Source: a virus. Taken from it: a DNA stretch of 64,000 bases. A program made the translations under genes and the position numbers. Location: IMG/VR virus record IMGVR_UViG_3300028197_001738, positions 1 through 64,000 of that record; one strand, written 5' to 3'. The notes below the pieces were generated by a model. It did not search any database, had not been told where the DNA came from, and saw only the letters and a list, made by a program, of their open reading frames with translations. Shown piece by piece: positions 1 to 59,403 of the stretch. The number at the start of each line of letters is the position of its first letter. The first letter of the stretch is position 1.

Positions 1-1
1 T

Positions 2-253
2 CCACCGCCTCCTCCACCTCCGCCTCCTCCACCGCCTCCTCCACCCACTGCGACAGTTACGCCTACTGTGACAGTTACGCCTACTGTGACAGTTACGCCT
101 ACAGTGACAGTTACGCCTACAGTGACAGTTACGTCTACGGTAACAGTTACTCCTACCACAACTCCAACTCCGTCACCACCATCTTCTGCATATAGAGTGC
201 TAGCGCAAAGAGGAAGAATTGTCCCCAATATATCGAGCAGTATTAATCCTTAA
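2..253 (+). CDS. C-terminal fragment of a Pro/Thr-rich (mucin-like) protein, starts upstream of the window
   Basis: Frame is open from position 2: ~15 Pro, then (TVTPTV)n, ending at TAA 251-253. Confidence 0.75.
   Translation, partial: PPPPPPPPPPPPPPPTATVTPTVTVTPTVTVTPTVTVTPTVTVTSTVTVTPTTTPTPSPPSSAYRVLAQRGRIVPNISSSINP
52..141 (+). repeat. 18-bp tandem repeat, 5 copies (gacagttacgcctacwgt), coding TVTPTV
   Basis: Units read directly at 52, 70, 88, 106 and 124 (the last is degenerate). Confidence 0.9.
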
Positions 254-6248: not shown

Positions 6249-7862
6249 ATGGCATTAGAATTAAATAACTGTAATAGTGCAAATTATAATTTTACGGCAG
6301 ACTGGAATAGTCAAGACGGGAATGTAAGCACGGTAGGATCTAACGGGAAAAGCAGTTATTATGGAACGTATGATCAAGCTGGAAATGTTTGGCAATTATT
6401 AGATTCCTTAAATGGTTCATACCAAGCCCTTAGAGGAGGAGCATATAATAGTATAGATACTAATATATCTAAAAATTATAGAAGTTCACAATATTTAGAT
6501 GCAAAAAGATCAAACCTTGGCTTTAGAATAGCAAAGAAGATAAATAATACAGATTCTTATAGTTCTTTCGTAAGTGTGACAGGAAGTAGTGTTCAAGACT
6601 CTACAACATACGGGGGAGTAGCTTACGATTTTAAACTGCAAACCTATCCAGTGACCAATACAGAATATGTCGAATTCTTAAATACAGTAGCTGTTGATGG
6701 GGCCCCAGGTAAAGAACTGTATCATATCAATATGGGTGTTTTCCCTCACGGAGGCATAGAAAGAAATGGAGAGTTTCCGACTTATACATATTCTATAAAA
6801 ACAGATATGGGGAATAAACCCATTAATTTTATTAATTGGTACTCTGCTGTTAGGTTTATTAACTGGATAAGCAACGGAAAACAAACAGATGTAGATACCA
6901 CAGAATCAGGAGTTTACACATTAAACGGGAATGTAAAAAGTTCTCCTCTTAATAAGAATACATACTGGCTACCAACAGAAAACGAATGGTACAAAGCTGC
7001 TTATTATGATCCCAGTTCTTCCACGTATTCGACTTATGCGACACAATCTAATTCATTACCAGATTCCGTTACTGTAGATTCCACAGGATACGCAGTAGAT
7101 ACAGCAAGCAATCCTGGGATTTGTATTAGTCCGACACCTACTCAGACCCATACTGCGAGTCGAACCCCAACAAATACTAGCACAGCATCTCCAACCCCAA
7201 CAAATACTAGCACATCCACGCAGACTCCCACAGCGACACCTACTAATACGGCAACACAAACTTCTACTGCTTCTACAACACCAACGCCAACTAACACCAA
7301 CACCTCTACTGTGACTCACACTCCTACTCATTCTTCTACAGTAACCCCCACAAGAACTCCTACTAATACTCCAACCGCTACGGCAACTCCAACTATCACC
7401 CCAACAGCTAGTACTACTCCTACAATAACTCCAAGTGTCACTAAATCTCAATGTCCTCAAGAAAAAATAGGTCAATTAATTTTTCAAGATAATATATTTT
7501 TAAATGATGCGATGGATATAGTGTATAAAGGTTTTGTGCTGTCTGGTAAAGTTATAGGACAAAATGTTTCTGTTTCCGAGGCTTTAGATGTTACACCTAC
7601 TACAACTCCTACACAAACACCAACCAATACATCAACTCCTACACAAACTCCGTCCAATACTCCAACAGGCACAACAACACCTACATCAACTCCTACTCCT
7701 ACAAACTCTAGAACACCACAGCAGACAGCGACAAACACCCACACGCCAACAGCCTCAGTCACATCAACACCAACTAATACCGAAACACCCACACCTACAC
7801 CTAGCGCAACAGAAAATTGGACAATTATATATGATGGTGGTGACGCATATGGAAATGTATAG
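6249..7862 (+). CDS. Circularly permuted FGE-sulfatase (SUMF1/CLec-fold) domain plus two Thr/Pro stalks
   Basis: [15 protein letters not shown] and GFRIA precede [21 protein letters not shown] and [12 protein letters not shown]. Confidence 0.8.
7130..7810 (+). repeat. Two Thr/Pro/Asn low-complexity coding tracts (~7130-7440 and ~7590-7810)
   Basis: TPT(N/Q/A)T repeats with degenerate codons. Confidence 0.85.
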
Positions 7863-7892
7863 CTCTATAAACCCAAAAATTTAAGAAATATT

Positions 7893-10800
7893 ATGTCAAA
7901 CACTTCCCTTCAACACAATTTACAACTTGATCCAACTCAGCATGTTATATTTAGCGAAGCTTTTAGGAATGGCGATAAACAACCCTTAAATGGAAGAACA
8001 TACTATAACAATCCCCTGTCTGTAACATTGTATGAAGGCGAAATTGCTAAAATAACAGCGACGGGATTGATAAATTTTAATAATCATTGTGACCCCTATA
8101 CTCCCGATGGTAGTGCTACATGTTCTAGTCAGACCGATATGGTCGGAGGTTCTCCTCCCGGAGCATTATATGGAAGATTAGGTTTAGGAAATATTTTCCG
8201 AATAGGGTCATCTTCTACAATTACTGTATCCAAAACACAAGTTTTACATTTATTTTTAATAGACAGACCAGCAGAAGATAATTCAGGTAGCTGGGATATT
8301 ACAGTAGATATTTCTAGTCTTCGAGCTGCTCGTAGAGATGAACAAAACTGTTTTAATAAATTAGATTCAGATTTGCCCCAAGGTTTAAATTGTTGTTCAT
8401 TCATACAAACAGCCCTTCCTAATAGTGCTAATTATGGTAAGAATGCCAATTGGAAAGGTAGTGTTAATTCAAGCCTGCCTTTCGTTTCAGGTAATATAAC
8501 GACTGTGGGCAGTAATGGAGGAGCTAGTTATTACGGAACGCGAGATCAAACAGGGAATGTTGCAGAGATTAACGACGCATATATAGTTGATCCTGTCGGA
8601 GGTGACTCTAGAGGTCTTAGAGGAGGATCTTTTGCAGAACAAATACAGTTTATTTCAAAATCTCATAGAGGGTCCGTGCCTGTTCAAGATGCAGGAGAAT
8701 TTAGTAGCGACATAGGATTTAGATTATCTTCTCCGTATGACGAAGGGGTGTATAGATTCCATAATCAATTTTTGCCTGTTCTTAATTCTGGAAATACCGC
8801 AGACTCTACGAGCTATGGGAATGTTGATTATAATTATTATATCACCAAATTCCCGATTAGTAATACTGAATATGTGCAATTCCTTAATACAGTGGATCCA
8901 AGCGGAGATAATCAGCAGGATTTATTTAAGTCATCTACTCAAAATTTTTATAGAGGCATATCTAACACAGGAACAGTAAGTGGTTCGATATACGGATGTG
9001 ATGTAAATATGGATTTCAAGCCAGTGAATTTGGTAGACTGGTTTAATGCTGCTAGATTTGCTAACTGGTTACATAATAAAGTTTCTATCGGCCCTGATGT
9101 TACTGGGGACGCAGCTACAGAAGATGGAGCTTATACTTTAAATGGCCTTAACAGCGGTGTTGTTTATGCTAATGCTGACGCAAAATACAGAATACCAACT
9201 GAAGATGAATGGTATAAAGCGGCTTATTATGATGGTTCTGTAGATAGTTATTGGAAATATGCGACACAAACCAATGACGACCCAGAACAAGTTTGTGCTA
9301 GTAACGCAGGAGATGGAGGACAGTGCGATCCTCTACCAACTCCAACAGCAACGCCGACGAGTACAGTAACCCCAACAAATACAGCTACCGCTGGTCCTAC
9401 TCCTACACAAACAGCTACAGCTACAGTTACTCCAACAAACACCGCTTCTGCTACAGCGACACCTACTAACACCCCTACTAACACCGTTACTCCAACTAAC
9501 ACTCCTACTTCATCTGTAACTCCTACTCAAACAGCTTCAGCAACAGCTACGACCACAGCTGTTCCTACGGCCACAGCTTCTGTGACACCGACACAAACAC
9601 CAACAAATACTCCTACAAATTCAGTTACTCCTACACAAACAGCTTCAGCAACAGCTACATCTACCACTACTGCCACTCCAACACAAACGCCAACAAATAC
9701 TCCTACTAATTCAGTAACTCCTACCACAACCCCAACAAATACGGCAACTACTACTGCCACGGCCACCACAACACACACTCCAACTAATACTCAAACACCA
9801 ACGAACACACCAACAAATAGTGTGACTCCTACTCAAACACCAACTAATACTGTTACTCCTTCTTCGACAAACACTAGTACTCCCACTCCCACAGCGACAA
9901 CAACGGGTACGGCTACTCCTTCTCCCACAGTCACTAGTACTGTCACTCCAAGTAACACTCAAACGAATACAGCAACTTTAACAGCTACTCCCACTAATTC
10001 CGCAACCCCTACTCAAACGCCAACGAACACGCCAACGCAAACTAATACGGCTAGCCCCAACAGCACACCAACGCTTACGACGACGAACACTCCGACCAAC
10101 ACCTTAACTCAGATGTTCTTCACTCCTACCCCAACGAATACCCCATCGAACACAGCTACTGTTACGCCAACAGCTACTACTACAGCAACAGCTACGCCTA
10201 CAAGTACCACAGAAGCAACAGCAACCCCTACAACAACACAGACAGCAACTGTCACGCCAACCTCATCAGTAACACCTACTATAACCCCTACAACAACTCA
10301 GACTCCAACCAATAGTCCAACCTCTTCTGTAACCCCAACGATAACTCCAACTAGTACTATAACTCCGAGTATTACTCCTACGATCACTCCTTCTGTAAGT
10401 GTCCTTGGGGACACGAACAACATGCAATTAGTTGTTGAAGTCGTTGACGCAGCAGTAACTAGTCAATCAACTCTAACAGTGCTTCTAGACCCAACTGATA
10501 CCTGTGTTATTAATTGGGGAGATGGTGAAGTGGAATATGTCACTAACGAACAACCATCAGTTTACACTCATACCTATTCGGCTAATGGAGTTTATAGAGC
10601 GTCAATTGTAAACCCAATTCAAAGAATAAGTTTTTATGGTTCGGTTGTATTGACCCATGTTTTGAGCTGGGGTAATTCTCCCGAATTAGGAAAATATCCA
10701 GGCTATGGAATGTTTGAACAATGTATAAATTTAGTAGGAGTCCCATCAATATTTCCCGCTAATCTTGTATTCGCATCATATATGTTTGCTGGTTGTAGAA

Positions 10801-11612
10801 AATTGGGCTCGATACCTATAGATCTTAGTGGATGGGACACAACAAGCATAGGTACTGCTGACTCAATGTTCAAAGGATGTATTTCTCTTGGTATGTATAG
10901 TCCTGTTGGTATTCAATATTGGAATTTACCATATCTCGCTGATGCATCCAGTATGTTTCAAGGATGTTTCTCTTTAAATGAATCTATATCCTGGAACCTT
11001 CCTAGTTTGTCAAAAGTAGACAACATGTTCAATAGCTGCAACCTGCTAAATAGCGATATCTCTATGCAGAACATGACTAATCTAAGTAATATTTATGCTA
11101 TGTTTATGGATTGTACTAGTCTTAATAGCAGCATTAATGTAAACACAGCGAACGCAACGTCAATGAGATACATGTTCTACAATTGTAATAGTTTAAATCA
11201 AAATTTAGCAGCAACTATGTCATTCGGCAAACTTGGACAAGGGGATGTTGCTACAAGATCTTGCTCGCTAGAAGGTTTCGCTGGAGGCGCAACAAAACTT
11301 ACTGGTGCCAACTACGATGGACTCTTGCAAGAGTGGAATGATAGTACTTATCCAGTAACTTTCACGAATGTAGATATGGGCCGATCCACTCCTAGCGTTG
11401 GCGCTGGTCAAAACGATAAAATCAGTCTTATTGATAAAGGCTGGACTATATTTGACGGAGAAAACCTCAATTTAAATCCTTCAGCACCTTCAGAGTGTGA
11501 ATTGGATACGCCATTTTATAGTGTGCCACCTCCACCTCCACAACTGCCACCGCCACCTCCACAACTGCCACCGCCTCCACCGCCGCCACCGCCGCCTCCA
11601 CCGCCATATTAG
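7893..11612 (+). CDS. Multidomain adhesin: PA-IL/LecA-like lectin, permuted FGE/CLec domain, long Thr/Pro stalk, PKD-like domain, BspA/DUF285 repeats, poly-Pro tail
   Basis: [11 protein letters not shown]...DNSGSW; [23 protein letters not shown] before [12 protein letters not shown]; INWGDG; repeated ..MF..C..LN; terminal Pro run. Confidence 0.8.
9335..10400 (+). repeat. ~350-codon Thr/Pro/Ala mucin-like tract
   Basis: [18 protein letters not shown] and VTPT units. Confidence 0.9.
11526..11606 (+). repeat. Poly-proline tail including two 21-bp PPPPPQL units
   Basis: ccacctccacctccacaactg / ccaccgccacctccacaactg followed by a Pro run. Confidence 0.9.
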
Positions 11613-11619
11613 GAGTTTA

Positions 11620-12021
11620 ATGATGAACAATAAACAAATCGTAGAAAATTTAACCAAAAAAATATACGACAATATGGGCTATAATTCAGATTTAGACAAA
11701 GCAGGAAGCATACTTATTATACTAGCTTTAGCTGGTATAACTTTATCATTAATTAGAATAATACAAGAATGTAATAGCAACAAACTATCTAAGATGACAG
11801 AAGAAGAACAAACTCAGTTCTTGCAAAGTAGAATCAAAACTTTGTGCTCTAAGAATACTTGGATTAGTAAGTGGAGATTAAACAAGATTGTTAAGAGACA
11901 TTTATCAACAGAAGAGTACAAAATGTTTGGTAAAAAAGCAACGGACGCGATAATTAAGTCAGGGAAGAATATAGAATATAAAGAGTGTCATGCTTTAATG
12001 GGAGAATCAAATAATGTTTAG
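11620..12021 (+). CDS. Hypothetical single-TM protein
   Basis: AGGAG SD at 11611 places the start at 11620; SILIILALAGITLSLI. Confidence 0.7.
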   Translation: MMNNKQIVENLTKKIYDNMGYNSDLDKAGSILIILALAGITLSLIRIIQECNSNKLSKMTEEEQTQFLQSRIKTLCSKNTWISKWRLNKIVKRHLSTEEYKMFGKKATDAIIKSGKNIEYKECHALMGESNNV

Positions 12022-12262
12022 TATAATTATATGGTGTGTATATGGTATATTCGTAGGAGCTATTGCTAAAAGTATCGTTCCTGGAGAAGAAAATTTTGGT
12101 TTTTTTAAGACTATAGCACTAGGAGTAGCGGGCTCATATTGTGGAGGCGCAGTATTATATATGCTTGGCGAATATTCAGCAGTAGAGCCAGCTGGTATTT
12201 TTATGGGAATAGCAGGTTCTGTTTTAAGCTTAGTGTTATATAATAAATTAACGACTAAGTAA
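12014..12262 (+). CDS. GlsB/YeaQ/YmgE (transglycosylase-associated) membrane protein
   Basis: IIWC.YGI.VGAIAK.I.PG...G...TI.LGVAGS..GG...G.F.GIAGS, three TMs, 82 aa. Confidence 0.8.
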   Translation: MFSIIIWCVYGIFVGAIAKSIVPGEENFGFFKTIALGVAGSYCGGAVLYMLGEYSAVEPAGIFMGIAGSVLSLVLYNKLTTK

Positions 12263-12281: not shown

Positions 12282-13889
12282 ATGCTTCCAAAAAATTTTG
12301 ATTGGGAATATTATATTTCTGCCAATCATGACCTACAAAAAGCTGGTATTCAGGACGAAACTTCTGCTATCAAACACTGGTTAGAAAATGGCTATAAAGA
12401 AAATCGTAAGTATTGCGGTTCGAAAAATACTCTGTCTCTGATCGTAGCATGTAAAGACCGAGTATACAATTTGGTCGAAGCATTAAATTCTTGGCTAGAA
12501 ATAGATAGAATTACAGAATGTATAATTGTAGATTATAATTCGAGTCCATCTGTATTAGAAAATGAATACTTTGAGTCTTTAAAAAATAATAGTAAAATTA
12601 AAATTGTTAGAGTTGTTAATAAAGAAAGATTTAATCTGGGGCAAGCATATAATATTGCAATAGATTACTGTAACAATAGAAATATATTAAAAATAGATGC
12701 TGATCATATATGTAAAGATTCTAGTTTTTTAGATTATTTTGTAGAACCCTATGTTCATACATGCTTTCTTCATGGAGACCACATTTTTTGTGATAGTGGT
12801 CTTTCTGGATTTTGCCTTTTCCCTAAAGAAGCGAATGTTTATTATAGAGAAGACCTAAATGCGTGGGGTCATGATGATTTAGATTTCTACAATCGTCTTA
12901 GGCAAAAACCTCATCCTTACGACCCAAAACAAAAATTGAAAGAAGTTATATTTTTTAATATTGACAAGTATATAGAACACAAGCCCCATGCAACAGATAC
13001 TCATTATTATCAAAACAAACACAAAAATAACCATTTAAATAAATCACTATGTTTAATTAATCCTTATTTAGAACCATTAAGACAAGAATATAAATTAAAT
13101 AATAACGAAGAAATTATTTTTAATAATAAAAAAACTATAGATAAAATTTATTGTATTAATCTTGAGCACAGGACGGATAGATGGCAAAACTGTAATAACA
13201 TAACAAATATAGAACGTTTCGATGCTGTTAATACTAGTGATGTTACGGATCAATATATTCAAAACGGGTTAACTTACAAACCTATCGATACGGAAGTAGC
13301 CATATATTTTTATGTACATTCTGGAGCCTATGGAGCATATTTAAGTCATTACTTATTATGGCAGAAAATAGTTGCCAGTGATGTAGACTATGCTTTGGTA
13401 TTAGAAGACGACATAGAGTTAAGTAGTGTTACAAATTTTTTAGACTCTAATCTTTTAATCGAAGAGTATGATTTTATACAACTTTCTAAAAAAATTAGAT
13501 TTGATATATATAACAACGCAATATTTGACGGTGCAGAATCGTATATTATATCTAACAAAGGAGCAAACACGCTATTGTCCTTAACTCATTCTCCATTTTT
13601 ATTTGACAAGTTGGGCGTAAACAAGTATAATAATGCAAACTATGTCGATTCTGTGTCTAATAATTATCGATGGTCAGAACAACCAGCCATCACTTGTCCC
13701 GTAGATAAGTTTATGGGGTATGCTTGTCAGACGGGGTTATTAAAATTTTTCTTGTATCCAACTATTAATATAGATAAAGAATTGTCAAAAAAATCGAACA
13801 TAGCAATAGAAGGTAGTATTAATGCTTGGAATTTTGATTATAATACTATTAAGCATTATTCTAAATTGATTGGAAACATAAATGAGTAG
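12282..13889 (+). CDS. Fused glycosyltransferase: GT-A (GT2/GT7-like) plus GT25
   Basis: IIVDYNS, FNLGQAYN, KIDAD, WGHDDLDF; then IYCINL..R.DRW, RFDAV, G.YLSH..LW, LVLEDD. Confidence 0.85.
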   Translation: MLPKNFDWEYYISANHDLQKAGIQDETSAIKHWLENGYKENRKYCGSKNTLSLIVACKDRVYNLVEALNSWLEIDRITECIIVDYNSSPSVLENEYFESLKNNSKIKIVRVVNKERFNLGQAYNIAIDYCNNRNILKIDADHICKDSSFLDYFVEPYVHTCFLHGDHIFCDSGLSGFCLFPKEANVYYREDLNAWGHDDLDFYNRLRQKPHPYDPKQKLKEVIFFNIDKYIEHKPHATDTHYYQNKHKNNHLNKSLCLINPYLEPLRQEYKLNNNEEIIFNNKKTIDKIYCINLEHRTDRWQNCNNITNIERFDAVNTSDVTDQYIQNGLTYKPIDTEVAIYFYVHSGAYGAYLSHYLLWQKIVASDVDYALVLEDDIELSSVTNFLDSNLLIEEYDFIQLSKKIRFDIYNNAIFDGAESYIISNKGANTLLSLTHSPFLFDKLGVNKYNNANYVDSVSNNYRWSEQPAITCPVDKFMGYACQTGLLKFFLYPTINIDKELSKKSNIAIEGSINAWNFDYNTIKHYSKLIGNINE

Positions 13890-25639: not shown

Positions 25640-26676
25640 TTACATATTTTAGAAGCTCCTCTTACAACACCCACTCTATGTGCGAACAGCAGTACTTTAT
25701 AGAGTACGTCCTTGGATGGAGAGGCCCTTCGGGACAAAAGGCTGATAAGGGTACTATTGTACATAAAATTTTAGAAATATTGGCTGTAATCAAACAAGCT
25801 CAACAAAATAATCAAGAAGAAATAAATGATGATCTTTTGGGCCCGATAAGTACCGATAGCTATAATCTCAATACAATTATACATGACGTATATGAATATT
25901 ATACTACCAGAACACCTCATCATAAGTGGACCGCTAAAGATTATAAAGATTGCCATGCTTGGACCTACAAGGCAATAGATTTTAATGACGGAATGTTTGA
26001 TCCAAGAAATAGAAATATATTGTGCCCAGAACAACATTTCGATTTTGAAATTAAAAAACCATGGTCTAAATATAGTTATAAATTGCCAGATGGTAAAAAC
26101 TTAGAAGGTAATTTAGCTATGAAAGGAACCATAGATTTAATTACGCTGGTAAATGAAGATACTATTGAAATTATAGATTGGAAAACAGGAAGAAGGTTAG
26201 ATTGGGCTACCGGTAAAGAAAAAACACAAGAAAAACTTGAGACAGATCCTCAATTAAGAATATATCATTATGCCATTAAACATTTGTATCCCCATATAAA
26301 ACATATCATATTTTCAATTTATTATATCAATGATGGGGGTCCTTTTACTGTTTGTTTCGATGACAAAGATTTGATTTCTACAGAAGATATGTTGCGAGCT
26401 AAATTCAACACTATCAAAGCTGTTAAGCGTCCTAAATTAAAGAAAAGTTGGATGTGTACAAAGTTATGCCATTTTGGTAAAACAACTTTTGAAAATTCTA
26501 TACTTGACCCGACGGTTGAATATAGAGATAATCAAGTATGTAGTAAAGGTTCGTACATGACAAAGTGCGAACAAATTAAACACGATATAGAACTATACGG
26601 TATAGACACTTCTATGGCTCTATATAAACATCCTAATCACTCATTTGGTTCATATCAAGCCCCAGGTTCTGCATGA
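25633..26676 (+). CDS. PD-(D/E)XK RecB/Cas4-like exonuclease, probable non-AUG start
   Basis: In-frame IITYFRSSSYNTHSMCEQQYF, GT.VH.ILE, GTIDL..IIDWKTG, QLRIY, C..LC..C; first ATG is at 25678. Confidence 0.8.
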   Translation: MIITYFRSSSYNTHSMCEQQYFIEYVLGWRGPSGQKADKGTIVHKILEILAVIKQAQQNNQEEINDDLLGPISTDSYNLNTIIHDVYEYYTTRTPHHKWTAKDYKDCHAWTYKAIDFNDGMFDPRNRNILCPEQHFDFEIKKPWSKYSYKLPDGKNLEGNLAMKGTIDLITLVNEDTIEIIDWKTGRRLDWATGKEKTQEKLETDPQLRIYHYAIKHLYPHIKHIIFSIYYINDGGPFTVCFDDKDLISTEDMLRAKFNTIKAVKRPKLKKSWMCTKLCHFGKTTFENSILDPTVEYRDNQVCSKGSYMTKCEQIKHDIELYGIDTSMALYKHPNHSFGSYQAPGSA

Positions 26677-28541
26677 AAAACTATAGCGCATTACATGTCC
26701 ATTCCCATTACAGTTTGATGGATGGTCTTTCTAAACCTTTGCAGATAGCTGACAGATGTAAAGAAGTAGGTATTACAAGCTGTGCCATTACTGATCACGG
26801 CTCCATATCTGGTGCTGTTCAATTCTTTTCGGCTATGAAAAACCAAGGAATTAAACCGATACTGGGATGTGAAATATATGTTTGTAAGGAAAGTCCTGAA
26901 ATAAAAAACAAAACCAATAGTAAACTAAGTCATTTTTTATTATTATCAAAAAATTATGAAGGTTGGAGATCTTTAATTAATATTATTTCAGAATCAAATT
27001 TAGAATGTAATTTTTATCGAAAGCCAAGGCTAGATTTTAACACTCTGGCAAATCTATTAGATGGTAATATTATCGGATATTGTGGACACATGGGGTCCGT
27101 GTTGGCAAACGATCTGATGTCTTCTTCTGAAAATGACATAGGTAAGATAGGCTCAGAATTTGTTGCACATATGAAAGACATTTTTGGTTCTGATAACTTT
27201 TTTCTAGAATCACAGTTAATGGATAAAGAAAATACACCAGAACAAATAGAGATTACAGAACACATACGTAGAATTGCAGAAAACACAAACACTAAAGTAA
27301 TATGTACTCCTGATGCTCATTATTGTAGAAAAGAAGATGCGGTAGATCAGCGCATACTGTTGTGCAATAATCTAAAAACAACATTAGTGGAGATCAACAG
27401 AAAACTACTAAACGACGAAGAAGTTCCTATGTCTTGTTTTTTTAAATCAGATAATTTTCATATATTGTCTCCAGAAGAAATGCAAGAATTACATACAGAA
27501 GAAGAAATCGAAAACACTTTATACGTAGATAGCTTATGTGAAGACTATACCATATTAGATAAACCTATCTTACCCGATTTTAAATGTCCTAAAGGTATGG
27601 ATTCAGCTGAATACTTAAGACATTTGTGTAGACAGGGCTGGAAAAATAAAATTGAACACGATGTAGATAAAAATATGCATGCAAAATATGTTGATAGAAT
27701 TAAATATGAATTAGATGTTTTGCAAGGTGCGGATTTATCCAGCTATTTTTTAATTGTTCAAGATATAGTTCAATATGTTAAAGACAGTTCTTGGCTACCC
27801 GGCCCAGGCAGAGGGTCTGCTGCAGGATGTTTGGTATCTTATCTAATAGGAATAACTTCTATTGATCCAATTAAATATGATCTTATTTTCGAAAGATTTT
27901 ATAATGCAGGTAGAAATACCGGCGGGCATATTTCTATGCCTGATATTGATATAGACGTTCCAATTAACAAGAGAGAAGAGATAATCTCATATATTAAAAA
28001 GCAATATGGTGAAGATAAAGTTTCTCAAATGATAACTTTTAATACCATGAAAGGTAGAGGAGCTTTAAAAGAGGTTCTTAGAGTTTATGGAAATATAACC
28101 TTTGATGAAATGAATAAGATTACTAAATTTATACCAGACGAAGCAAAAATAGCAGATGAGTTGCAAGAAATGAGAGAAGACACAGGAGAGGCTTCTATTA
28201 TAAGATGGGCATTAGAAAATAATGTTGACAAACTAAAGGAATGGTGCTATATTAATGATGAGGGGCAGCTATCAGGGCCTCTAGCTAAAAGATTTGAACA
28301 GGCTATAAGGTTAGAAGGAACTAAATCAAATCAATCAAAACATGCTGCTGGTATCGTAATAAGTAAAGATCCTTTAAGAAGTGTTTGTCCAATGGTATAC
28401 GATTCTAAAAATAAACAATCAATTGCCGGAATGGAAATGCAAGACCTTGAGAGTTTAGGTGTAATTAAATTTGACGTCCTTGGCATAGCCATGTTAGACA
28501 AAATTATGACTATATCTAATATACTAAAAACTGGAGAATAA
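26673..28541 (+). CDS. dnaE: DNA polymerase III alpha, N-terminal part (PHP plus catalytic palm)
   Basis: HVHSHYSLMDG, TDHG, GCE, DAHY, GPGRGSAAG, PDIDID, HAAG, KFDVLG, then a stop. Confidence 0.93.
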   Translation: MKNYSALHVHSHYSLMDGLSKPLQIADRCKEVGITSCAITDHGSISGAVQFFSAMKNQGIKPILGCEIYVCKESPEIKNKTNSKLSHFLLLSKNYEGWRSLINIISESNLECNFYRKPRLDFNTLANLLDGNIIGYCGHMGSVLANDLMSSSENDIGKIGSEFVAHMKDIFGSDNFFLESQLMDKENTPEQIEITEHIRRIAENTNTKVICTPDAHYCRKEDAVDQRILLCNNLKTTLVEINRKLLNDEEVPMSCFFKSDNFHILSPEEMQELHTEEEIENTLYVDSLCEDYTILDKPILPDFKCPKGMDSAEYLRHLCRQGWKNKIEHDVDKNMHAKYVDRIKYELDVLQGADLSSYFLIVQDIVQYVKDSSWLPGPGRGSAAGCLVSYLIGITSIDPIKYDLIFERFYNAGRNTGGHISMPDIDIDVPINKREEIISYIKKQYGEDKVSQMITFNTMKGRGALKEVLRVYGNITFDEMNKITKFIPDEAKIADELQEMREDTGEASIIRWALENNVDKLKEWCYINDEGQLSGPLAKRFEQAIRLEGTKSNQSKHAAGIVISKDPLRSVCPMVYDSKNKQSIAGMEMQDLESLGVIKFDVLGIAMLDKIMTISNILKTGE

Positions 28542-28542
28542 A

Positions 28543-28722
28543 ATGGTTAAAAAATTTAGAGAATTAAATGTCGGAGATCAGTTTACTTATGCTGGTACTC
28601 AGTATATAAAAATGAATCCTGTAAAAGTAAGCTGTTGTAGATCAGTTAATATGCATGTTGTGGGAAACACATCACAAAGAACTTTTTTAAACCCAGATGT
28701 AGAGGTTACAGTTAATGCCTAA
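28543..28722 (+). CDS. 59-aa protein missing from the ORF track (MVKKFRELNVGDQF...VSCCRSVN...)
   Basis: GGAG SD at ~28533; open frame to TAA 28720-28722, overlapping the dnaQ start. Confidence 0.75.
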   Translation: MVKKFRELNVGDQFTYAGTQYIKMNPVKVSCCRSVNMHVVGNTSQRTFLNPDVEVTVNA

Positions 28723-29407
28723 TTTTCAGAAGATATGCGTTTTTGACATGGAAACGGACGGGGCTAAACCTGATAAGTGCAGCCCCGTTCAAATCGCAGC
28801 CATTATGATTGATCCTAATAGGCTGGAAATTATTAAGGATTCGGAATTCAATATTACATTAAAGCCATTGGCTTTAGAAGATGATAAGGACTATGACTAT
28901 AGTGATTCCGATGTGTTAGACTTTCATGCTAAAGTCCAAGGATGTTCAAAAGAAAATATTTTGGATAAGTGGAAGGACTATCCTAAGCAAGAACTGGGTT
29001 GGAAAAATTTTGTTTCTTATCTAGATATGTATCATACTAGGTCTGAAAGAAAATCATGTTTCACAGCACCAATTGCTGCAGGTTATAATATTAATGGTTT
29101 TGATTTAAAAATAGTTGAGAGACTAAGTTCTAAATACAAAAATGTTAATAAAGAGGGAAGATCAAATTTATTTTTCCCTAGAGACGTTATAGATGTAATG
29201 AATTTAATTTTTTATTGGTTTGAAGGAAATAATGAACTAAAGAACTATAAAATGGATAATCTTAGAGAATATTTCGGTATGGATAAAGATGGAGCACATG
29301 ATGCCCTCAAGGATGTACAAGATACAGCAGGGTTACTTATTCGTTTTTTGAAATTGCATAGAAATGTTGCTCAAAAAGTCAGTTTTAGAGATTCTTTTGT
29401 TCAGTAA
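28715..29407 (+). CDS. dnaQ: DEDDh 3'-5' exonuclease (DnaQ/epsilon-like)
   Basis: FDMETDG (ExoI), GYN..GFD (ExoII), HDALKD (ExoIII). Confidence 0.88.
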   Translation: MPNFQKICVFDMETDGAKPDKCSPVQIAAIMIDPNRLEIIKDSEFNITLKPLALEDDKDYDYSDSDVLDFHAKVQGCSKENILDKWKDYPKQELGWKNFVSYLDMYHTRSERKSCFTAPIAAGYNINGFDLKIVERLSSKYKNVNKEGRSNLFFPRDVIDVMNLIFYWFEGNNELKNYKMDNLREYFGMDKDGAHDALKDVQDTAGLLIRFLKLHRNVAQKVSFRDSFVQ

Positions 29408-29409
29408 TT

Positions 29410-31041
29410 ATGTCAGAATATTTTGCTTTTTCTTGTGGCTGTAAGTTCAAAGTCTTAAATAAAGATTGCGATCCTCCACTTATTGATTTTAATCCTGAAT
29501 TAGAGTCTATAAATCTTAATTGTGAAAAAACTTGGGATCTGATATCTTCTGGTAATACCAAAGGGTGTTTCCAGTTAGAATCTCGCTTAGGCCAGACAAT
29601 GGCCAAGAAGCTAAAACCCTCAAATATTAATGAGCTTTCTGGATTGATAAGTATTCTTAGGCCGGGATGCCTAGAAGCTTATCGTGATGGAAAAAGTGTT
29701 TCCAGTCATTATATAGACAAAAAGAATGGTTTGGAATCAATTGATTATTTTCATCCCGCTTTGGAGCCTATTTTAAAACATACATATTCTGAAATGATTT
29801 ATCAAGAACAAGCTATGTCTATATCTAAAGAATTGGCTGGTTTTGATCTACAACAAGCTGATGAATTAAGAAAAGCTATTGGTAAGAAACAAGCAGATAA
29901 AATGGCAAAGCTTAAAAAGAGCTTTATCAAAGGTTGTGCAAAAAGAAAGTCTGTGTCTAAAGATGAGTCAGAACAGATATTTGGATGGATTGAAAAATCC
30001 CAGAGGTATTTATTTAATGCCAGTCATTCTATTAGTTATGCCATGAATGCCTATCTGTCTGCTTATGCTAAAGCGCATTTCCCTAAAATATTCTTTGCTT
30101 CATATTTACGTTTTGCCAAAGACAAAATGGATTCTCAACAAGAGATTAAAGAGTTGGTAAGAAATGCTAATGAAATGGATATTAAAATTAGCATACCTGA
30201 TTTAAGAAATCTCAATGAATTTTTTATCCTAAAAAACAAAATCATATACTTCGGCCTAACAGACATAAAAGGCGTCGGTCAGTCCGTATATAAAAAAATA
30301 ATAAAGATGGCAGAAGAAAAAGATATTATTGAGTATAGTTGGCTGGAAACTTTATTTGAAGTACTATTAAATATTAATTCAACTGCCAGTAAAGCACTAA
30401 TTTCTTGTGGTGCTCTGGATTATTATAAAAAAAATAGAACAGATATGTTATTCAATTATGATCTTATTTCTGAATTAACAAAAAAAGAATCAGACATATG
30501 CAGAAACATTATATCTGAGTCTAAAAATAAAGATATCAAAATAATAAAAGTGCTAGAGCAACTACTAGAAGCCCCTAGAATACAGAAAAATAGAAAAAAA
30601 ATAATAAATAATATAATTAGCAGTATCAAGAAACCTCCTTACTCCCTGATAGATAAGATAGAGTGGCTGTCCGACTCCGAAAACAATATGCTCGGTGCAT
30701 CAATTACGTGTTTTAAAATTGATACATATGATACTGCTATGGCTAACTGTAATTGTAAAAGCTTTAAAACTTCAGTTGTAAGTAGTAATATTGTCATTGC
30801 TGGAGAAATTAATAATATAAATATTATTAAAACCAAAAAAGGTAAAAATCCTGGACAAGAAATGGCTTTTGTTAGTATTGAAGATCAGTACGGAATACTA
30901 GACTCTGTAATATTTTTCCCTGAACAACTGTCTAAATATAGAACACATCTTTTCAATGGCAATATCTTAATATTCAGCGGTAACAAAAGCAAAGATAAGG
31001 ACGGATTGATAGTAGAAAAATGTTTTATGCCAGCGACTTGA
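29410..31041 (+). CDS. dnaE: DNA polymerase III alpha, C-terminal part (fingers, HhH, OB fold)
   Basis: GCFQLES, LRPG, YQEQ.M, LRKAIGKK, YLFN.SH, FGL..IKGVG, MAFVSIED..G. Confidence 0.92.
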   Translation: MSEYFAFSCGCKFKVLNKDCDPPLIDFNPELESINLNCEKTWDLISSGNTKGCFQLESRLGQTMAKKLKPSNINELSGLISILRPGCLEAYRDGKSVSSHYIDKKNGLESIDYFHPALEPILKHTYSEMIYQEQAMSISKELAGFDLQQADELRKAIGKKQADKMAKLKKSFIKGCAKRKSVSKDESEQIFGWIEKSQRYLFNASHSISYAMNAYLSAYAKAHFPKIFFASYLRFAKDKMDSQQEIKELVRNANEMDIKISIPDLRNLNEFFILKNKIIYFGLTDIKGVGQSVYKKIIKMAEEKDIIEYSWLETLFEVLLNINSTASKALISCGALDYYKKNRTDMLFNYDLISELTKKESDICRNIISESKNKDIKIIKVLEQLLEAPRIQKNRKKIINNIISSIKKPPYSLIDKIEWLSDSENNMLGASITCFKIDTYDTAMANCNCKSFKTSVVSSNIVIAGEINNINIIKTKKGKNPGQEMAFVSIEDQYGILDSVIFFPEQLSKYRTHLFNGNILIFSGNKSKDKDGLIVEKCFMPAT

Positions 31042-31562: not shown

Positions 31563-33221
31563 ATGAAACCAAAACTTAAAATTTTAATGTGCTCTGAAGC
31601 AAGCTTTCTTAGTTCCGGATTTGGAACATATACAAAAGAGCTTTTGACTAGATTACACAACACAGAAAAGTATAACATAGCAGAATTTGCTTCTTACGGC
31701 TATGTCAATGATCATAGGGATAAAGACATCCCTTGGAAATATTATGCTAATGCAGTAAGAGAGAATGACAGCAGGCATAGAGAATATTCCTCTCGGCAGG
31801 ACAACCAATTTGGAAGATGGAGATTTGAAAAAGTATTGCTGGATTTTAAGCCAGATGTTGTAGTTGATATAAGGGATTACTGGATGAGTGCTTATCAAGG
31901 TATTTCTCCTTTAAGAAAATATTTTCACTGGATTCTAATGCCCACAGTCGACTCTGCTCCACAGCAAGAAGATTGGATTGATACTTATCTTTCTGCCGAT
32001 GCCATATTTAGCTATTCTGACTGGGGAGGACAAGTTATTCAGCAGCAAAGCAGTGGTGCTGTAAACTATATAGATACTGCATCTCCCGGAGTGGATTTAA
32101 ATATCTTTAAACCACAAAACAAAGCCGCTTGCAAAGCATATCTGGGTATTCCAGAAGATTCCATAATTATAGGATCTGTGATGAGAAATCAAAAACGAAA
32201 ACTTATTCCAGAATTACTCCACGCTTTCAGATCGGTATTAGACAACTTAAAAGAAAACAAAGAAGATGAAAAGGCTAAAAAACTATTTCTTTATCTTCAT
32301 ACTAGCTATCCCGATATGGGTTGGGACATCCCCGAACTATTGAAAGATTTAAGATTATGTAATAAGGTGTTTTTTACATATAGCTGTAGAGGATGTAAAA
32401 ATATTAAATCGACTACATTTTCAGGCCCACAAAAAACTTGCAGTAAATGCATGAACAATGCTTGCTTCTTACCCTCTGTCACAGACGGTATCGAACAAGA
32501 AGATTTAAGCAAAATATATAATACTTTTGATATGTATGTTCAGTATTCCATATGCGAAGGTTTTGGTATGCCTCAAGTGGAGGCCGGAGCCTGTGGAGTA
32601 CCCATTGCCACCGTAGACTACAGCGCTATGTGTGACATTGTTAAAAAGTTAAATGCTTTTGCTGTGCCTCCTAAAACTATTTTTAAAGAAATGGAAACTA
32701 AAGCATATCGTGTCTATCCAGATAACGACATCCTAGAACAGCATATACTAAATTTTATAGACAAGCCATCTCCGATACGAAGTCGAATGGGTTCTGAGGT
32801 AAGATCCTTAACAGAACAAAACTACTGCTGGAATAGAATAGCCAAGGTGTGGGAAAAATATTTAGACGAACTCGACGATAGAGGATACAGGTCAGACTGG
32901 AACGCAGAAGCTACTTATATACAAGAGCATGAAATGAATAAAGATGTGTCTAGCGTTCAAAATTTATTTAAATATTGTGCTACGTATGTTTCTGATTTAT
33001 CTAAAATTGGTAGCTATAAATTTTTAAATATACTTAAAGACTCAGACTATGGTTTTACCGTTAAAGGCCCTACTTCCATAGTCCCTGCTGGTAAACAGGA
33101 TATGGAGAATTTCTTTCAAATGTATGCCAAAGCCCATAACACTGCTGAAAAAGCCAGAGTGTCAGGAGCAACATCTCAAGAAGACTTTATAGTATATGCC
33201 AAAATGAAAGCATCTTCATAA
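31563..33221 (+). CDS. GT4 (GT-B) glycosyltransferase with an inserted CxxC..CxxC
   Basis: KILMCSE..SGFG, PGVD..IFKP, MRNQKRK, EGFGMPQVEAGACG (EX7E), W..IA..W. Confidence 0.88.
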   Translation: MKPKLKILMCSEASFLSSGFGTYTKELLTRLHNTEKYNIAEFASYGYVNDHRDKDIPWKYYANAVRENDSRHREYSSRQDNQFGRWRFEKVLLDFKPDVVVDIRDYWMSAYQGISPLRKYFHWILMPTVDSAPQQEDWIDTYLSADAIFSYSDWGGQVIQQQSSGAVNYIDTASPGVDLNIFKPQNKAACKAYLGIPEDSIIIGSVMRNQKRKLIPELLHAFRSVLDNLKENKEDEKAKKLFLYLHTSYPDMGWDIPELLKDLRLCNKVFFTYSCRGCKNIKSTTFSGPQKTCSKCMNNACFLPSVTDGIEQEDLSKIYNTFDMYVQYSICEGFGMPQVEAGACGVPIATVDYSAMCDIVKKLNAFAVPPKTIFKEMETKAYRVYPDNDILEQHILNFIDKPSPIRSRMGSEVRSLTEQNYCWNRIAKVWEKYLDELDDRGYRSDWNAEATYIQEHEMNKDVSSVQNLFKYCATYVSDLSKIGSYKFLNILKDSDYGFTVKGPTSIVPAGKQDMENFFQMYAKAHNTAEKARVSGATSQEDFIVYAKMKASS

Positions 33222-47861: not shown

Positions 47862-50800
47862 TTAATTCATAGATGTTAATGTCCATGATCCGTCTATAAA
47901 AGAAAAAACTCCAGGGGCTCCTGAATAAACTTTAAAATCTAATGGGTTATTAAAATTAACTACCAAATCACTGCTTACTGCTCCTGTTTTAGATTTAGCA
48001 TATGCTGTATCAATATTAGCCTCTCCATTATTTATAACTCCTAGGGCCACTATATTAGGCTTGCTAATAGGTTCATAATAACCAAGATCAGGATTATACC
48101 TACACAATAACCTAACACCAGCAGGAGCACTGTATCCTGCTCTATCTATAACATATACTAGTCTTCTAAACCCCTTAGGTAAAGGTTCAGTTATATATTC
48201 TAAATCATCAATATATCCCCTAACAACATTAGTATAGAAAAATATATCAGGATCTCTAATTAGATCTTGTTCTAACGTAATATATACCATTTTATATGGG
48301 CATCCGCTATCAGTTTTTTCACTAATATAATCAGCTAATGTAGAGTTGTCAATTTTATTAGTAACAATATATGGTGGCAATAATTCTTCTCCACAGCCAC
48401 CATCTCCTCCAACCCAGACTCTGCGTTCATGATCCCATCGCAAGTCTACAGGACCAACAGGCCAAGTATCAGGTTTAGATGCCCAATTTTCACTAAAATA
48501 CTTACTAGGTTTTTTACTCATAACCCATTGACTACCGTCCCATGAATATCTTTTTGTAATAATATCCCCTAAATGAAGCAAGAAAAAAGGATTATCTTTT
48601 GTTTTCCTTATTGGTTCAAATGCTCCTGGATGTGTCATATCATTGAATCCTTTTCCGTCCAACTTAAATCTTTTCGGTCTTCCTTTTTCATCTATTTCTA
48701 GCGGCTCATCACTATAATTAGGTATGGGGTAACCATCTTTATCATACCCCCATCCGTGAACCATTAAGGGACCTCTTAGCGAAAAGAATCTTTGATTATT
48801 TAAGAAAAGTGTTCCTTCTGCCTCTTTTGATTCAAAATCAAATTCTTCAAAAGCAGGAGGTATCGTTGAACTCTGAGTGTTTCTGCCGTGGAAATTATCA
48901 AGATTTGCTTCTATACCAGGAAGTTGTTGACCTCTACCAACAACTCTAATACTATGTGTATCAGGAATATTCCCGGATGGATACGCATTAGGATTAGCAA
49001 ATTCTCCACGAGGAACAACCACAGGATTTAAAGAATAAAAATTTATACCTATATCTTTAGATTTAGGATCAGAGTTTAATACTACACGAGGAGCCTTGTC
49101 TTTAGTTGGTTTCTCGTCTAAGAATTTATCATAAGACACTCTAGAAGCATTACAGTTTGGACAAGCATACTTAACAGTTTGTCTATCTTCGGAATTAGGA
49201 TAATTCACAAACGTATCTTCAATATATCCGACATTTTTACATATGTGACAATAAGCTTTGGTTGCATAGCCGTCAAGTACTGCAGGTATGTTTCCACTTT
49301 CTAATGTAGCAAGCCTTGTTTGTGCTGTTGTGAAATTTGATAAATTGTGTGTAGAATGATAGGATGTAGCATAAAAAGAAACAGGAGATAATAAACCGTC
49401 TAGGCTCATAGCAGATTTAACATTATAGCCTTGCAATAATTCTGGACCTACTTCTTCAGCCATAAATAATCCAGCCCAAGATTCCATTTGTTTATTTTTA
49501 ATCATTTTTTGAGCATCACTACCATTATTACTGGCCGCTATGAAATGCCTAGATGATCCTATCAATAACTCTCCTGGACTATTTCCAAACATACTATCTG
49601 AATATAAGTCAGCAGCCTCTTTTAAGACATCAGTAGTGTTTGTTTGGTTTTCTATAATAGATAAAACTTCTTCCGCTAATTGATTTGTGCTACTGTTTTG
49701 ATTAGTTAGCACCTCATTACCCAGTTTCAGAAATCTTTGGTTTATTTTTTTCTGAGTATCAGACAGTTCTTTGTTATAACTACCCATTTTTGGATTGTAG
49801 GAGCCAATATTATATGAGGTAGTCACTCCTTCTGTAGCGACCGAAATATTAATACCTTGAACAAAAGGATATCCTTGATTATATGTAGAGCTTTGATCTA
49901 AAAATGTACATTTAAAATCCTGACTTACAAAACCTCCTTGCGTATTATAATCTTGCATTTTTATGGATTCAGTATCAACAGAATAAGGAGATACCAAAGT
50001 ATTAGCGCTAGTAGAAAATTGAGACCCTATAGTAAAAATAGGAGGTCCTAAAATTTTAACAGAACCATTTTCTTCTGTAGTCAAATAATTTTCTTTGGCA
50101 TTTATATCCCAAATAACGGCTTTGTCAAGTAAAGAGGTTCCTCCATAATTCCAAGGAACGTAGTCACTGTTGCTCTCTACAGTAATATTGTCTACTAAGT
50201 TTTCTACGATAGTGTCAGGATTGTTTACATAGCTCCATATATTGTTTTTATTTAAATCTGGATAGTTTGCCCACGGACCATAAACATATCTATTGCTTTC
50301 TACTGGAATAGCAGCAAAAAACGGCTGTGCTGCTTTTGCTCCCATTTTCCTGTGATTGGCTGATACGTTAGTTTTGGAACCTTTTTCTAGTAAATTACCT
50401 TCTTTGATTACCGGTGTAAGAAAATTACTTTCTAGATATTCCATATGATCATATTCGTCTTGTGTTAAGTCAAAACCGGTCCCAACTAATTCAGGTTCTC
50501 CATTCTCATCTATTCTATATTTTCTTGCTGCTCCTGTTGCGTATCTATAAAAAGATATATCTTCACTGGCAACATTAGGCATCACGTAACCGTTTGGATC
50601 ATGCTCATAGGCATAAGTAGTTGTGTTTAATTCAATTCTATTACCAATAGAAATAATAGCTCTAGGATCACTCAAAAACTCTGGTCTGCCATATGCTATT
50701 TTAGCATTGTTGTCTATAGAAGCTTTTTTATAAAGTTTTTTGCCTCCTGCACAAGGATCTGCGTCTGCGCCATAAGCAGAAACAAAACCTACATTATAAG

Positions 50801-53800
50801 GAACAACAACATGCTCTTTGCTATCTCCAGCTGTTGACCATTTAATAGAAGGAATTAAGAAACTGTCTTCATTAACAAATACTTTAGCTGTCGCATTTAA
50901 ATTACCGTTGTTTTGCTCTAATGCTTCTTCGGCTGTGCATTCTATGGCAGCAGGCATATCTGCTGTTACTGCCGCTGCCTGTCTTTTTAAAGCTTGAAAT
51001 TTTTTAAAACCTTTGAATGTCTCCTCGTCCATCCCTACGAAACTCTGCTTTAAGTACTCATCAGTTTCACTACCTGTTAATTCTAGGTATCCATCAAGTG
51101 CGCAAGTCAGAACGATATTGGGTGCTCCATTATCCATCGTTTGAGGACAAACTATTCTAAATGTCCAATTGCTTAAAGGTCCAACAAAAGGTTGTCTTAT
51201 AAATTGAACTTGTTCAAGCACGACCAACTCTACAAATAATTCATTAATTGCTTGGGCTCTTATCCCTGATAGTTTTTTAGCTTTTTCTAAAGCACTAAGA
51301 GCACACCATGCTTTTTTAGTATAATCAACTTTATCGCTAACATTAAATCCTAACAGAGGAGGTATCATACCCTGTTCATCTGTTAGAGCTGACCAGTAAG
51401 CTCCTCCTACCATAACTCCATCATCAATGAAATTACCTGGCTCTTCCCATGCTGATCTAGCTAAAGAATATTCACTAAATGTTTTGGCGCTACCTGAATA
51501 AACAAAAAGATCTCCTCCTCTAAAACCAGGTATATTAAAATTAGAGTACGCCTGATCTCTATAGCTTTGCATATATGGAATTTTAACCATATATTTTTTA
51601 CCATAATACTTACTAGCCAAAGTAGAAAGAAAATTAGTTAATATTTTAAGGTCATTAATAAAACCAGGATGCATAAGCATAGAAAAATTAATATCTGATA
51701 TTTTGCTTTTTTGAGCACCTTTTCTTTTACCTGGTCCTCCACCAGCATTTGCAACATTATTATCATTACCATGAGCTGCTAATTCTGAGGGAGATCTTGT
51801 CAGACCTTTCTTATTAGACACAACACCACTTGATATTTGAACACCTTTATCTTGCCAGCATTCTAATAACATTAAAAATAAATCTGGTTTTGTGCTTGGC
51901 ATTTTAGCCAAACAATATTTTAAATAACTTTCCCAACCAGACATAGCAGCTCGAAGCTCTGATTCTGTTACCAAAAATCCAGTACCTTTAAAATTTATTT
52001 CTCTTTTTAATTCAGGAGTTATATTTGGTTGAGTAGGGGGTACTCCTGTAGGAGGTATAGTTTCAGGATTTCCAGGACTATCACCACCAGATGCTAAGTC
52101 ATCAGGGTCTTGATCAAGCCCTTTGTCGGTTCCAGGTAAAGCTCCACTATCTTTACCGAAAAAAGCTTTGTCATAAACAGAAACTAAAGGACCACAACTA
52201 ACCGGAGGCAATTCATTTATATCAAAAGCTACACATAATTGACCTGTCCAACTATCTAGCCAAACAGGTCTAATATAATTATGCATGTTCGAGTCTTGCG
52301 AGACCGGGAAAGTTCTATCATATTTAAAACCGAAAAAAGGACAAATAGAGTCTTTAAATATAGGTATATATCTATTAGATTGGTCGATATTTGTTATAGT
52401 TGTCTCTGAACCTGAACTACCAAGGGTTCCTAGACTTCCAAAGAGAGCGGTTCCAAGAAGACCGCCACTAAAAAGACTACCTATAGACGGTGTTGTTTGT
52501 GTATCGGCTTGCTTAAATACTCCCAATAAAGTTAATGGACTCCCAACTGCTGTAAAACCAACAACATTGTTGCCTATGTTGCCAGCTAAACCAATTCCAG
52601 GAAGTTTAGCGGCATCAGTAATATTATCTATAATAGGTAGCCCGGTGTTTTCATCTATAGCAAAGTCTTTATTACTATAAACATCTAAACAACTTGCGTC
52701 TCTAGAAAATACGGTGTCGTCCACCCAAAGATTGTTTGGATCAGTAAACGAATTTCCAGTAATAAACTTTCTTACTTTTTCGTCGGTATCTATAATAGCA
52801 TTATAATTACCGTGAATTTGATCTCCTAATTGTGGATTTCTGGTCGATGTCGCCATAGGAACTTTGTATTTGTCCGTAACAATATCGTCGAATCTTCTAA
52901 AATTAATAAACTCTGCAGTAACTGGATTCCATATATAATTATCTTGATTGAAAGCTAATCTATAATTTTTAACTTGATATATTCTTTTTTGCTTACCTCC
53001 TATCATTACTGATCTAACATTAGCTTCTTTATTTTTTCTTTGACCAGAAGAACTAGATGTAGCAGCATACCCACTATTTACTAATTCGTTAACAACATAA
53101 TTGATTGTATATGGCTTTATATAATTTTCTTTAGGTACAGCTTTTACTTTTAATATATTATAAGGATTACTCTGTTGCACTAAAGATTCAGCAAAGACCC
53201 AATAATTTTGTTGACCATTCAGTTCTAGCATTTGGTTTAAAAAATCACTAATTCTTAAAATCCCACCCTTAGCCTCTACTCTAAAATCATCAGGAGGTAT
53301 TTCTATTTCAGATAGATCTAAAGCAAATTCTGTTCTAGGGATACCATTATGATCGAGTGTTGGAGGTATAACCCCAAAAGCATTATTTCGAAAAGAAGTT
53401 TGAATATTTAGATATCCCGTACTTTCAACTTTCTGCATCACTTTTGATAGTATTCTGCCAAAAGGAGAAAACATATTTTTAGATTGCCATTTTAATTGAC
53501 TCTTATCTGTAGAAGAAGTCAAAACCTTTAAAGCCTGCAATGCTAATCTGTAGGATATTCCTTTTTCATTCTTATTTGCTCCTCCAAAACCAGCAGGACC
53601 TAACGAATCAAGGAAACCATAGGCATTAAAAGTGTTATGTAAATTTCCAGATTTTATATTCGCCGTAGCGTCCAATGAACCTGCATAATTTCTTGGTGCT
53701 CCATAAATATCGCCAGGAGCCATAGAGAATACTGTTCCTGCGTATTGATCTAAAATAATATGAGAATTTTCTAATAGAGAACCAGCTGATTCTATTTCTA

Positions 53801-59300: not shown

Positions 59301-59403
59301 CAGCGAATTCATCATAAGTGTTTCTTAGCTTAACCTTAACAGTATATTCATTTCCTACAATAAGATCTTCTAGATCAATATTTATAATGTCTGTTGTTAT
59401 CAT
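56335..59403 (-). CDS. Fibre-like protein: Thr/Pro stalk plus two glycine-rich domains
   Basis: TPT repeats; two copies of Y..H.F...TF..FD.L..GGGG.G and GSG.VII(R/K)Y. Confidence 0.8.
58640..59140 (-). repeat. Thr/Pro/Ala mucin-like coding tract
   Basis: [10 protein letters not shown]...TATATATPT. Confidence 0.9.

Follow-up and report, generated by a model that had tools for sequence, protein, structure and literature searches.

This analysis concerns two adjacent phage genes in IMG/VR record IMGVR_UViG_3300028197_001738. Each of their products, P0001 and P0002, carries one domain of the formylglycine-generating enzyme (FGE)-sulfatase type, which has a C-type lectin (CLec) fold, with its two halves in reverse order. 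The stretch analyzed (the window) covers the initial 64 kb of this 95.7-kb virus record, for which CheckV gives a completeness of ~66%; its G+C content is ~33%, climbing to ~40% across 6–12 kb. In P0001 the domain comes first and is followed by two segments rich in threonine and proline (Thr/Pro stalks). The segment between the stalks, of ~35–50 residues around [12 protein letters not shown]...KGFVLSGK, is kept in close homologues. P0002 has a further N-terminal region ahead of the domain, and a stalk, repeats and a poly-proline tail behind it. The two proteins are 38% identical across 299 residues (E 1e-50), and inspection by eye revealed no obvious N-terminal signal peptide in either. The coordinates of all features are collected in Table 1. 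Minus-strand open reading frames (ORFs) inside the stalk regions (e.g. 7056–7475 and 7484–7792) were rejected as genes and are taken to be by-products of ACN-rich repeats.

Order of the halves and predicted fold

The Pfam hidden Markov model (HMM) for FGE-sulfatase, PF03781, has a length of 255 positions and a whole-protein cut-off of 23.3 bits. P0001 scores 68.2 bits and P0002 57.0 bits, each in two stretches. When the pieces were scanned separately, P0001 residues 16–96 matched HMM positions 155–255 (E 8e-6) and residues 126–265 matched positions 35–136 (E 1.4e-12), while P0002 residues ~199–278 matched positions 162–253 (E 1.6e-4) and residues ~313–462 matched positions 35–140 (E 2.7e-12). 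The order of the HMM is therefore reversed in both proteins, and a colinear match with the N-terminal half first was found in neither. Below, the piece corresponding to the canonical C-terminal half is called the C-type half and the other the N-type half, so that the phage order is C–N (CN) and the canonical order N–C (NC). The first-pass annotation, made from the sequence alone, had read this order in ORFs 6249–7862 and 7893–11612 and had predicted two partial matches per protein in reversed HMM order, and on both counts, as in the coordinates of the halves, it was right.

The reversal is also seen against the sequences of solved structures, namely FGE (5nxl/6s07), TvpA (2y3c), pFGE (1y4j) and CarF (5aoh). 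For TvpA, query residues 184–208, 233–252, 18–48 and 55–95 align in that order with chain positions 90–114, 156–175, 196–226 and 251–291. With pFGE (E 1e-9 against the family profile), profile positions 40–100 align with residues 198–267, and positions 117–147 and 191–207 with residues 17–52 and 116–132. These alignments, together with those to PF03781, place the break near HMM positions 140–155, past the LPTE.EW helix region and ahead of the 'aN..' segment, and the GFR strand, formerly C-terminal, now leads into the formerly N-terminal strand. In P0001 the N-type half contains the motif PVTNTEY...KPIN..W..A.RF.NW...LPTENEW. No canonical half is hidden beside the unit of P0001, because the ORF immediately upstream has no FGE match (it was considered as the supplier of a missing N-type half and rejected for this reason) and the N-type half is followed by a Thr/Pro stalk.

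P0001 residues 1–290 were modeled with AlphaFold2, using an 86-row alignment (A2) in which the domain had been cut from 55 non-redundant viral loci and re-aligned together with short homologues. The result is one compact domain with a predicted local distance difference test score (pLDDT) of 94.5 and a predicted template modeling score (pTM) of 0.93, and all five models reach at least 93.5 in pLDDT. In the model, the GFR strand (residues 95–97) is followed by nine residues and then by the old first strand (residues 107–110). A structure search independent of Foldseek (VIA; 48,161 representative chains) returned 15 chains at Z ≥ 2, and 15 of 15 are FGE-type CLec folds: CarF, TvpA, EgtB, ToxD, PorK, PvdO, CalU17, EgtB-IV, pFGE, OvsA, SenA, a second EgtB, OvoA, Mtd and TaqVP. 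Model residues ~98–290 align with the N-terminal parts of CarF (2–187), TvpA (53–245), PvdO and CalU17, and residues ~3–101 with the C-terminal parts of EgtB-IV (334–442), Mtd (146–380) and TaqVP (134–381). The model thus strongly suggests that the halves pack as they do in the canonical fold. Foldseek, run with the same model against the PDB and BFVD, gave nothing at E ≤ 0.001 and aligned ~100 columns of FGE-family chains; a partial alignment is expected, because a sequential aligner here meets a permutant, and it is not evidence against the fold.

The phage unit is also autonomous. The joint from the C-type to the N-type half has a median length of 6 residues (interquartile range 5–6, n = 289 units), and the median spacing of successive C–N units in multi-unit proteins is 184 residues, with a maximum of 798. 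Canonical proteins pass from N to C without a break, and the linker between their tandem domains has a median of 14 residues. Some proteins of 307–317 residues consist of one C–N unit alone. The unit thus combines the features by which circular permutants are generally defined: homologous halves, reversed order, a short link and autonomy. A true permutation common to both paralogues, as the first-pass annotation had proposed, is supported by the reversed alignments to the HMM and to PDB chains, the single AlphaFold2 domain of high confidence, the half-by-half structure matches and a large family with equal boundaries.

Two cysteines near the new chain ends bear on the same point. Where a cysteine stands just before the new N-terminal N-x-A-N motif, another stands just past the new C-terminus in 53 of 55 units, compared with 52 of the 105 units that lack the first cysteine. 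The counterparts in P0001 are C8 (6270–6272) and C292 (7122–7124). This covariation fits new termini that touch, as required of a true permutant, and suggests that a disulfide clamps the termini in a subfamily.

Of the other explanations, the one that survives best holds that the C-then-N sequence is left over from a tandem array, in other words, that it consists of two incomplete domains that are either non-functional or completed in trans by domain swapping in an oligomeric fibre. The closest non-viral relatives are canonical tandem (NCNC) proteins, colinear with the phage unit across the junction from the first C-terminal to the second N-terminal half (C1–N2), and phage fibres are usually oligomers. 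However, leftovers would not readily explain a joint fixed at ~6 residues among units as much as 798 residues apart, proteins made of a single C–N unit, a monomer model that forms one compact body, cysteines that covary beside the two new termini, or a family kept across hundreds of ORFs. We regard this explanation as unlikely, and genuine circular permutation as the better account.

Variable segment, diversification and catalysis

The most variable columns of the family correspond to P0001 residues 51–90, with an entropy of 2.1–3.2 bits versus 0.7–1.8 bits in most other blocks. This segment is the counterpart of the variable region of TvpA and Mtd, the part altered by diversity-generating retroelements (DGRs), and aligns with TvpA residues 251–291. 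Given this correspondence, the binding surface seems to be retained, and residues 50–90 of P0001 would form it.

FGE-type CLec domains are the most common DGR targets (PMC5758913). It could accordingly be supposed that the phage domains are DGR targets as well, served by a reverse transcriptase and a template repeat in the third of the genome that the record lacks, with the variable region moved to the 5′ part of the domain. In addition to the frequency of such targets, this supposition can draw on a neighboring gene with an Mtd_N domain, the incompleteness of the genome record and the fact that the family varies most in the segment equivalent to the variable region. The searches speak against it. 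The reverse transcriptase model RVT_1 has no match in the 95.7-kb record, although control genomes gave matches, and no template repeat was found in the window, in the whole record or in 76 related viral loci and their 6-kb flanks. The C-type halves show no repeat beyond the conserved cores of the paralogues. In the 76 related loci, the only repeats found match the conserved core of paralogues, not the variable segment, and most are without adenine bias; in loci L020, L023 and L025, 12 of 22 mismatches fall at A. We therefore consider DGR targeting very improbable for these domains.

A catalytic role, with the domains acting as FGE-, EgtB- or OvoA-type enzymes (copper- or iron-dependent oxidases) encoded by auxiliary metabolic genes of the phage, would suit the significant PF03781 match and the structural matches to EgtB, OvoA, SenA and FGE, but is scarcely credible when neither protein has a cysteine where it aligns with the FGE active site and the mucin-like stalks and adhesin repeats are those of surface proteins. 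The copper-binding, catalytic FGE cysteine pair that should follow the RGG motif is absent: P0001 has cysteines only at positions 8, 292 and 402, and P0002 has none in residues 169–368. Pfam detects no DinB-like domain in P0001 or P0002, and the equivalog models for EgtB (TIGR03440; 19.3 bits, cut-off 360) and for the type IX secretion lipoprotein PorK/GldK (TIGR03525; 18.8 bits, cut-off 350) fall far below their thresholds. Judged by their residues, the permuted domains are not enzymes.

Distribution, and proposed origin and role

The family comprises 2768 proteins at E ≤ 1e-3 (clustered at 90%) and 6491 representatives (at 50%), a mix of C–N and canonical forms. Among IMG/VR viral contigs, 279 stretches encode relatives. 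Architectures were counted in the ORFs of 76 loci kept from these stretches and of three loci of the window's own genome: 84 arrays are CN, 16 are CNCN and 2 are CNCNCN, with single examples of longer CN arrays, one CNNC and two single C halves, and the canonical NC unit does not occur among these mapped arrays. The species representatives of bacteria and archaea (185,579 species) contain 511 stretches that encode relatives. In the best 80 of these, mostly from Planctomycetota and Verrucomicrobiota, the counts are 66 NC, 11 NCNC and 2 NCNCNC; a few forms are truncated, and the C–N unit is absent. The permuted form is thus at least rare in this set, because a colinear C–N match would have ranked first. 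In other collections, tblastn of the domain against 50,697 GenBank phage records gave nothing at E ≤ 1e-5, BFVD contains no full-length match to the domain, and the ESM Atlas returned only generic bacterial FGE-sulfatase clusters, in which the order of the halves is not readable.

An unrooted FastTree tree was computed for 457 non-redundant units from concatenated alignments of the halves. The order of the halves changes 6 times on this tree, compared with ~145 times when the labels are shuffled. The largest CN group contains 174 of the 209 CN units, among them the three copies from this phage (P0001, P0002 and a third paralogue, encoded beyond the window). The tree supports few origins of the permuted form.

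The closest non-viral sequence relatives are single and tandem FGE-sulfatase proteins of Planctomycetota and Verrucomicrobiota, annotated as 'SUMF1/EgtB/PvdO family' or 'formylglycine-generating enzyme'. They are 31–46% identical in the best segments, and the tandem C1–N2 junction is 31–43% identical over 83–96% of the query; the bacterial inter-domain linker (~14 residues) resembles the joint of the permutant. Unlike the phage domain, the best 80 bacterial loci are all N-then-C. It is plausible that such proteins were the ancestors, by duplication and truncation. Textbook permutants (concanavalin A versus favin, permuted DNA methyltransferases and cpRAS) represent the same type of event in other folds, with duplication followed by truncation as the route (PMC3320104).

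Our preferred explanation, which we consider probable as a whole, is that the phage domains are genuine circular permutants, non-enzymatic and free of DGRs, that arose from a tandem array and serve as binding heads on Thr/Pro stalks. Each of the three proteins would carry one permuted domain. Its chain would start halfway along the canonical domain, near HMM position 150, run to the canonical C-terminus at the GFR strand, pass through a joint of ~6–9 residues into the canonical N-terminal strand and end where the canonical chain would go on. The unit would fold as one compact domain and keep its variable surface where DGRs diversify the canonical relatives. The permuted unit most likely arose when a tandem array of canonical domains, like those of the planctomycetal and verrucomicrobial proteins, lost its outer halves. 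The most likely function is that of a lectin-like binding head on the long flexible stalks of virion fibres or decorations. Ordinary mutation, duplication and the shuffling of domains would supply variety among the heads.

A more far-reaching version is that these domains are an undescribed class of adhesin heads: a phage-restricted lineage of one or few origins from tandem bacterial FGE-like domains, with the chain ends moved to another face of the fold and locked in a subfamily by a disulfide between the new termini, the variable surface at the tips of mucin-like stalks or as beads in giant fibre proteins, and diversification without DGRs. This is a possibility that we advance only tentatively and would sooner doubt than assume.

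The placement of the unit within proteins lends little support to the first-pass annotation's idea that the permutation moved the binding region inward and freed a new C-terminus for the stalk. In P0001, the counterpart of that region (residues ~50–97) lies at the extreme N-terminus; only in P0002, with 176 residues in front, is it internal. Among 127 viral units, 54 begin at the start of the ORF and 24 finish at its end. Of 104 units, 59 have a Thr/Pro stretch behind them, and of 81 units, 36 have one in front; such stretches do commonly lie behind the unit, as had been proposed, yet the association is not specifically C-terminal. Thus, the permuted domain is used at either end of proteins or internally.

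Several observations weigh against the explanation that we prefer. P0001 and P0002 have glycosyltransferase and nucleotide-metabolism genes as neighbors and lie outside the main tail module. The packing of the halves relative to the canonical fold is judged from a confident single-domain model and from half-by-half matches with Z values of only 2.7–6.4, and a first AlphaFold2 run, for which the alignment (A1) was shallower, with 42 rows of whole proteins, yielded a poor model (pLDDT 65), with which the Foldseek search was uninformative. The Fisher p of 2e-10 for the cysteine covariation is from a statistic that ignores shared ancestry. The tree is unrooted and FastTree-based, and a single origin does not follow from it, because CN units form a few groups, and 11 NC units sit within the largest of them. 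Finally, with the record at about two-thirds completeness, there is a small residual chance of a DGR elsewhere in the genome.

The nearest known parallels are TvpA of Treponema denticola (2y3c), Mtd (1yu0) and TaqVP (5vf4), which likewise use a non-enzymatic FGE-type CLec fold as a binding module. In TvpA-type proteins, as in the phage family, the GNV.EW and GFR motifs enclose the most variable segment. TvpA matches the model with Z 6.0 over 142 residues, and Mtd and TaqVP match its first 100 residues. The phage domain differs in that the final segment of the TvpA-type proteins comes first, in that no DGR was found, and in being mounted on Thr/Pro stalks in N-terminal, internal, C-terminal or repeated positions. 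FGE and pFGE/SUMF2 (1y1e, 1y4j) share the Pfam family and fold; compared with FGE, the phage domain lacks the catalytic cysteine pair, has reversed halves and occurs in a different protein context. The papers searched contain no account of a permuted FGE/CLec domain, and neither a jumbo-phage review nor the 2026 CIRPIN permutation survey mentions one.

The FGE-type CLec fold is the main scaffold for programmable ligand binding in phages and bacteria (Mtd, TvpA and other DGR targets), and the permuted form would be a natural, widespread and apparently phage-only rewiring of it. Colinear tools miss this form or misplace its boundaries, as the two partial Pfam matches and the truncated Foldseek alignment illustrate. 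It may be a clean natural case of permutation by duplication and truncation in which candidate intermediates persist in bacteria. In uncultured phages of marine and fresh waters, the domain flags a large set of proteins that probably bind receptors or mediate adhesion, and the apparent tolerance of the CLec scaffold for termini in mid-domain could be useful in the engineering of display scaffolds.

Genome context

Several independent studies include marine and seawater metagenome runs that contain DNA nearly identical to positions 6249–9330 (word shares 0.61–0.95); leaving aside the possible source run, at least 61% of the words sampled turn up in six runs from five studies. The source is therefore a recurrent uncultured marine phage. 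The IMG/VR relatives include many large contigs of 100–240 kb, and some metagenomic C–N proteins are from contigs of 130–235 kb.

Table 1. Features of the two proteins and of other parts of the record (positions in the window unless stated otherwise)
Feature	Coordinates	Strand	Remarks
P0001, 537 aa	6249–7862	+	N-terminal permuted CLec/FGE-sulfatase domain, then two Thr/Pro stalk segments
P0001 C-type half (aa 7–97)	6267–6539	+	family HMM built here; matches C-terminal half of PF03781, ends GFR
P0001 variable segment (aa 50–90, GNVW to GFR)	6396–6518	+	highest column entropy in family
P0001 joint (aa 98–106)	6540–6566	+	old C-terminal GFR strand to old N-terminal strand (FVSV)
P0001 N-type half (aa 107–284)	6567–7100	+	family HMM; PF03781 HMM 35–136
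P0001 stalk segment 1 (aa 289–404)	7113–7460	+	Thr/Pro; 41% T, 16% P
P0001 inter-stalk segment (aa 405–439)	7461–7565	+	not Thr/Pro-rich
P0001 stalk segment 2 (aa 440–528)	7566–7832	+	Thr/Pro
P0002, 1239 aa	7893–11612	+	N-terminal region, permuted CLec domain, stalk, DUF285/PARCEL repeats, poly-proline tail
P0002 N-terminal 176 aa	7893–8420	+	0 families in family scan
P0002 C-type half (aa 177–280)	8421–8732	+	family HMM; PF03781 HMM 162–253
P0002 N-type half (aa 293–476)	8769–9320	+	family HMM; PF03781 HMM 35–140
P0002 stalk, 365 aa (aa 474–838)	9312–10406	+	Thr/Pro; 45% T, 16% P
P0002 best DUF285 stretch (aa 1006–1106)	10908–11210	+	PF03382, BspA/PARCEL-type; second stretch nearby
P0002 poly-proline C-terminal tail (aa 1202–1239)	11496–11609	+	63% P
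ORF upstream of P0001, 85 aa	5989–6246		no FGE match
Fibre-like protein, 643 aa	909–2840	+	Mtd_N, then four DUF285/BspA-like repeats in place of CLec domain
Glycosyltransferase (GT2 + GT25)	12282–13889	+	~670 nt downstream of the Thr-rich stalk proteins
PHROG glycosyltransferase	31563–33221	+	
Giant ORFs, 2524 and 2169 aa	40270–47844, 47862–54371	−	both without Pfam match
Third paralogue, 1184 aa	genome 68,530–72,084 (L160:4530–8084)	−	outside window; permuted FGE/CLec unit ~aa 750–1056
Giant ORFs, ~2600 and >2120 aa	L160 8100–15998, L161 2–6361	−	outside window

The product of the fibre-like gene has matches to tail-fibre PHROGs at its N-terminus. The third paralogue lies within a run of giant minus-strand ORFs and adjoins an 819-residue fn3 protein; the four giant minus-strand ORFs in the table are presumably a tail or fibre module. 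Two ORFs (11497–12021 and 12014–12262) sit between P0002 and the GT2/GT25 glycosyltransferase. Speculatively, the Thr-rich stalks of P0001 and P0002 might be O-glycosylated.

Poly-proline and (T-V-T-P)n low-complexity tracts are present in several proteins of the window, at 1–253 (+), 11496–11609 (+) and 56335–59403 (−); the last of these is a protein of 1022 residues with a Gly_rich_2 domain and a long repeat tract. Elsewhere, the DNA polymerase is split in two ORFs that match consecutive parts of phrog_405 (42–610 and 622–1074). The region comprises 26673–28541, 28715–29407 and 29410–31041 (+), and the 230-residue ORF between the polymerase parts could be a homing endonuclease or another insertion.

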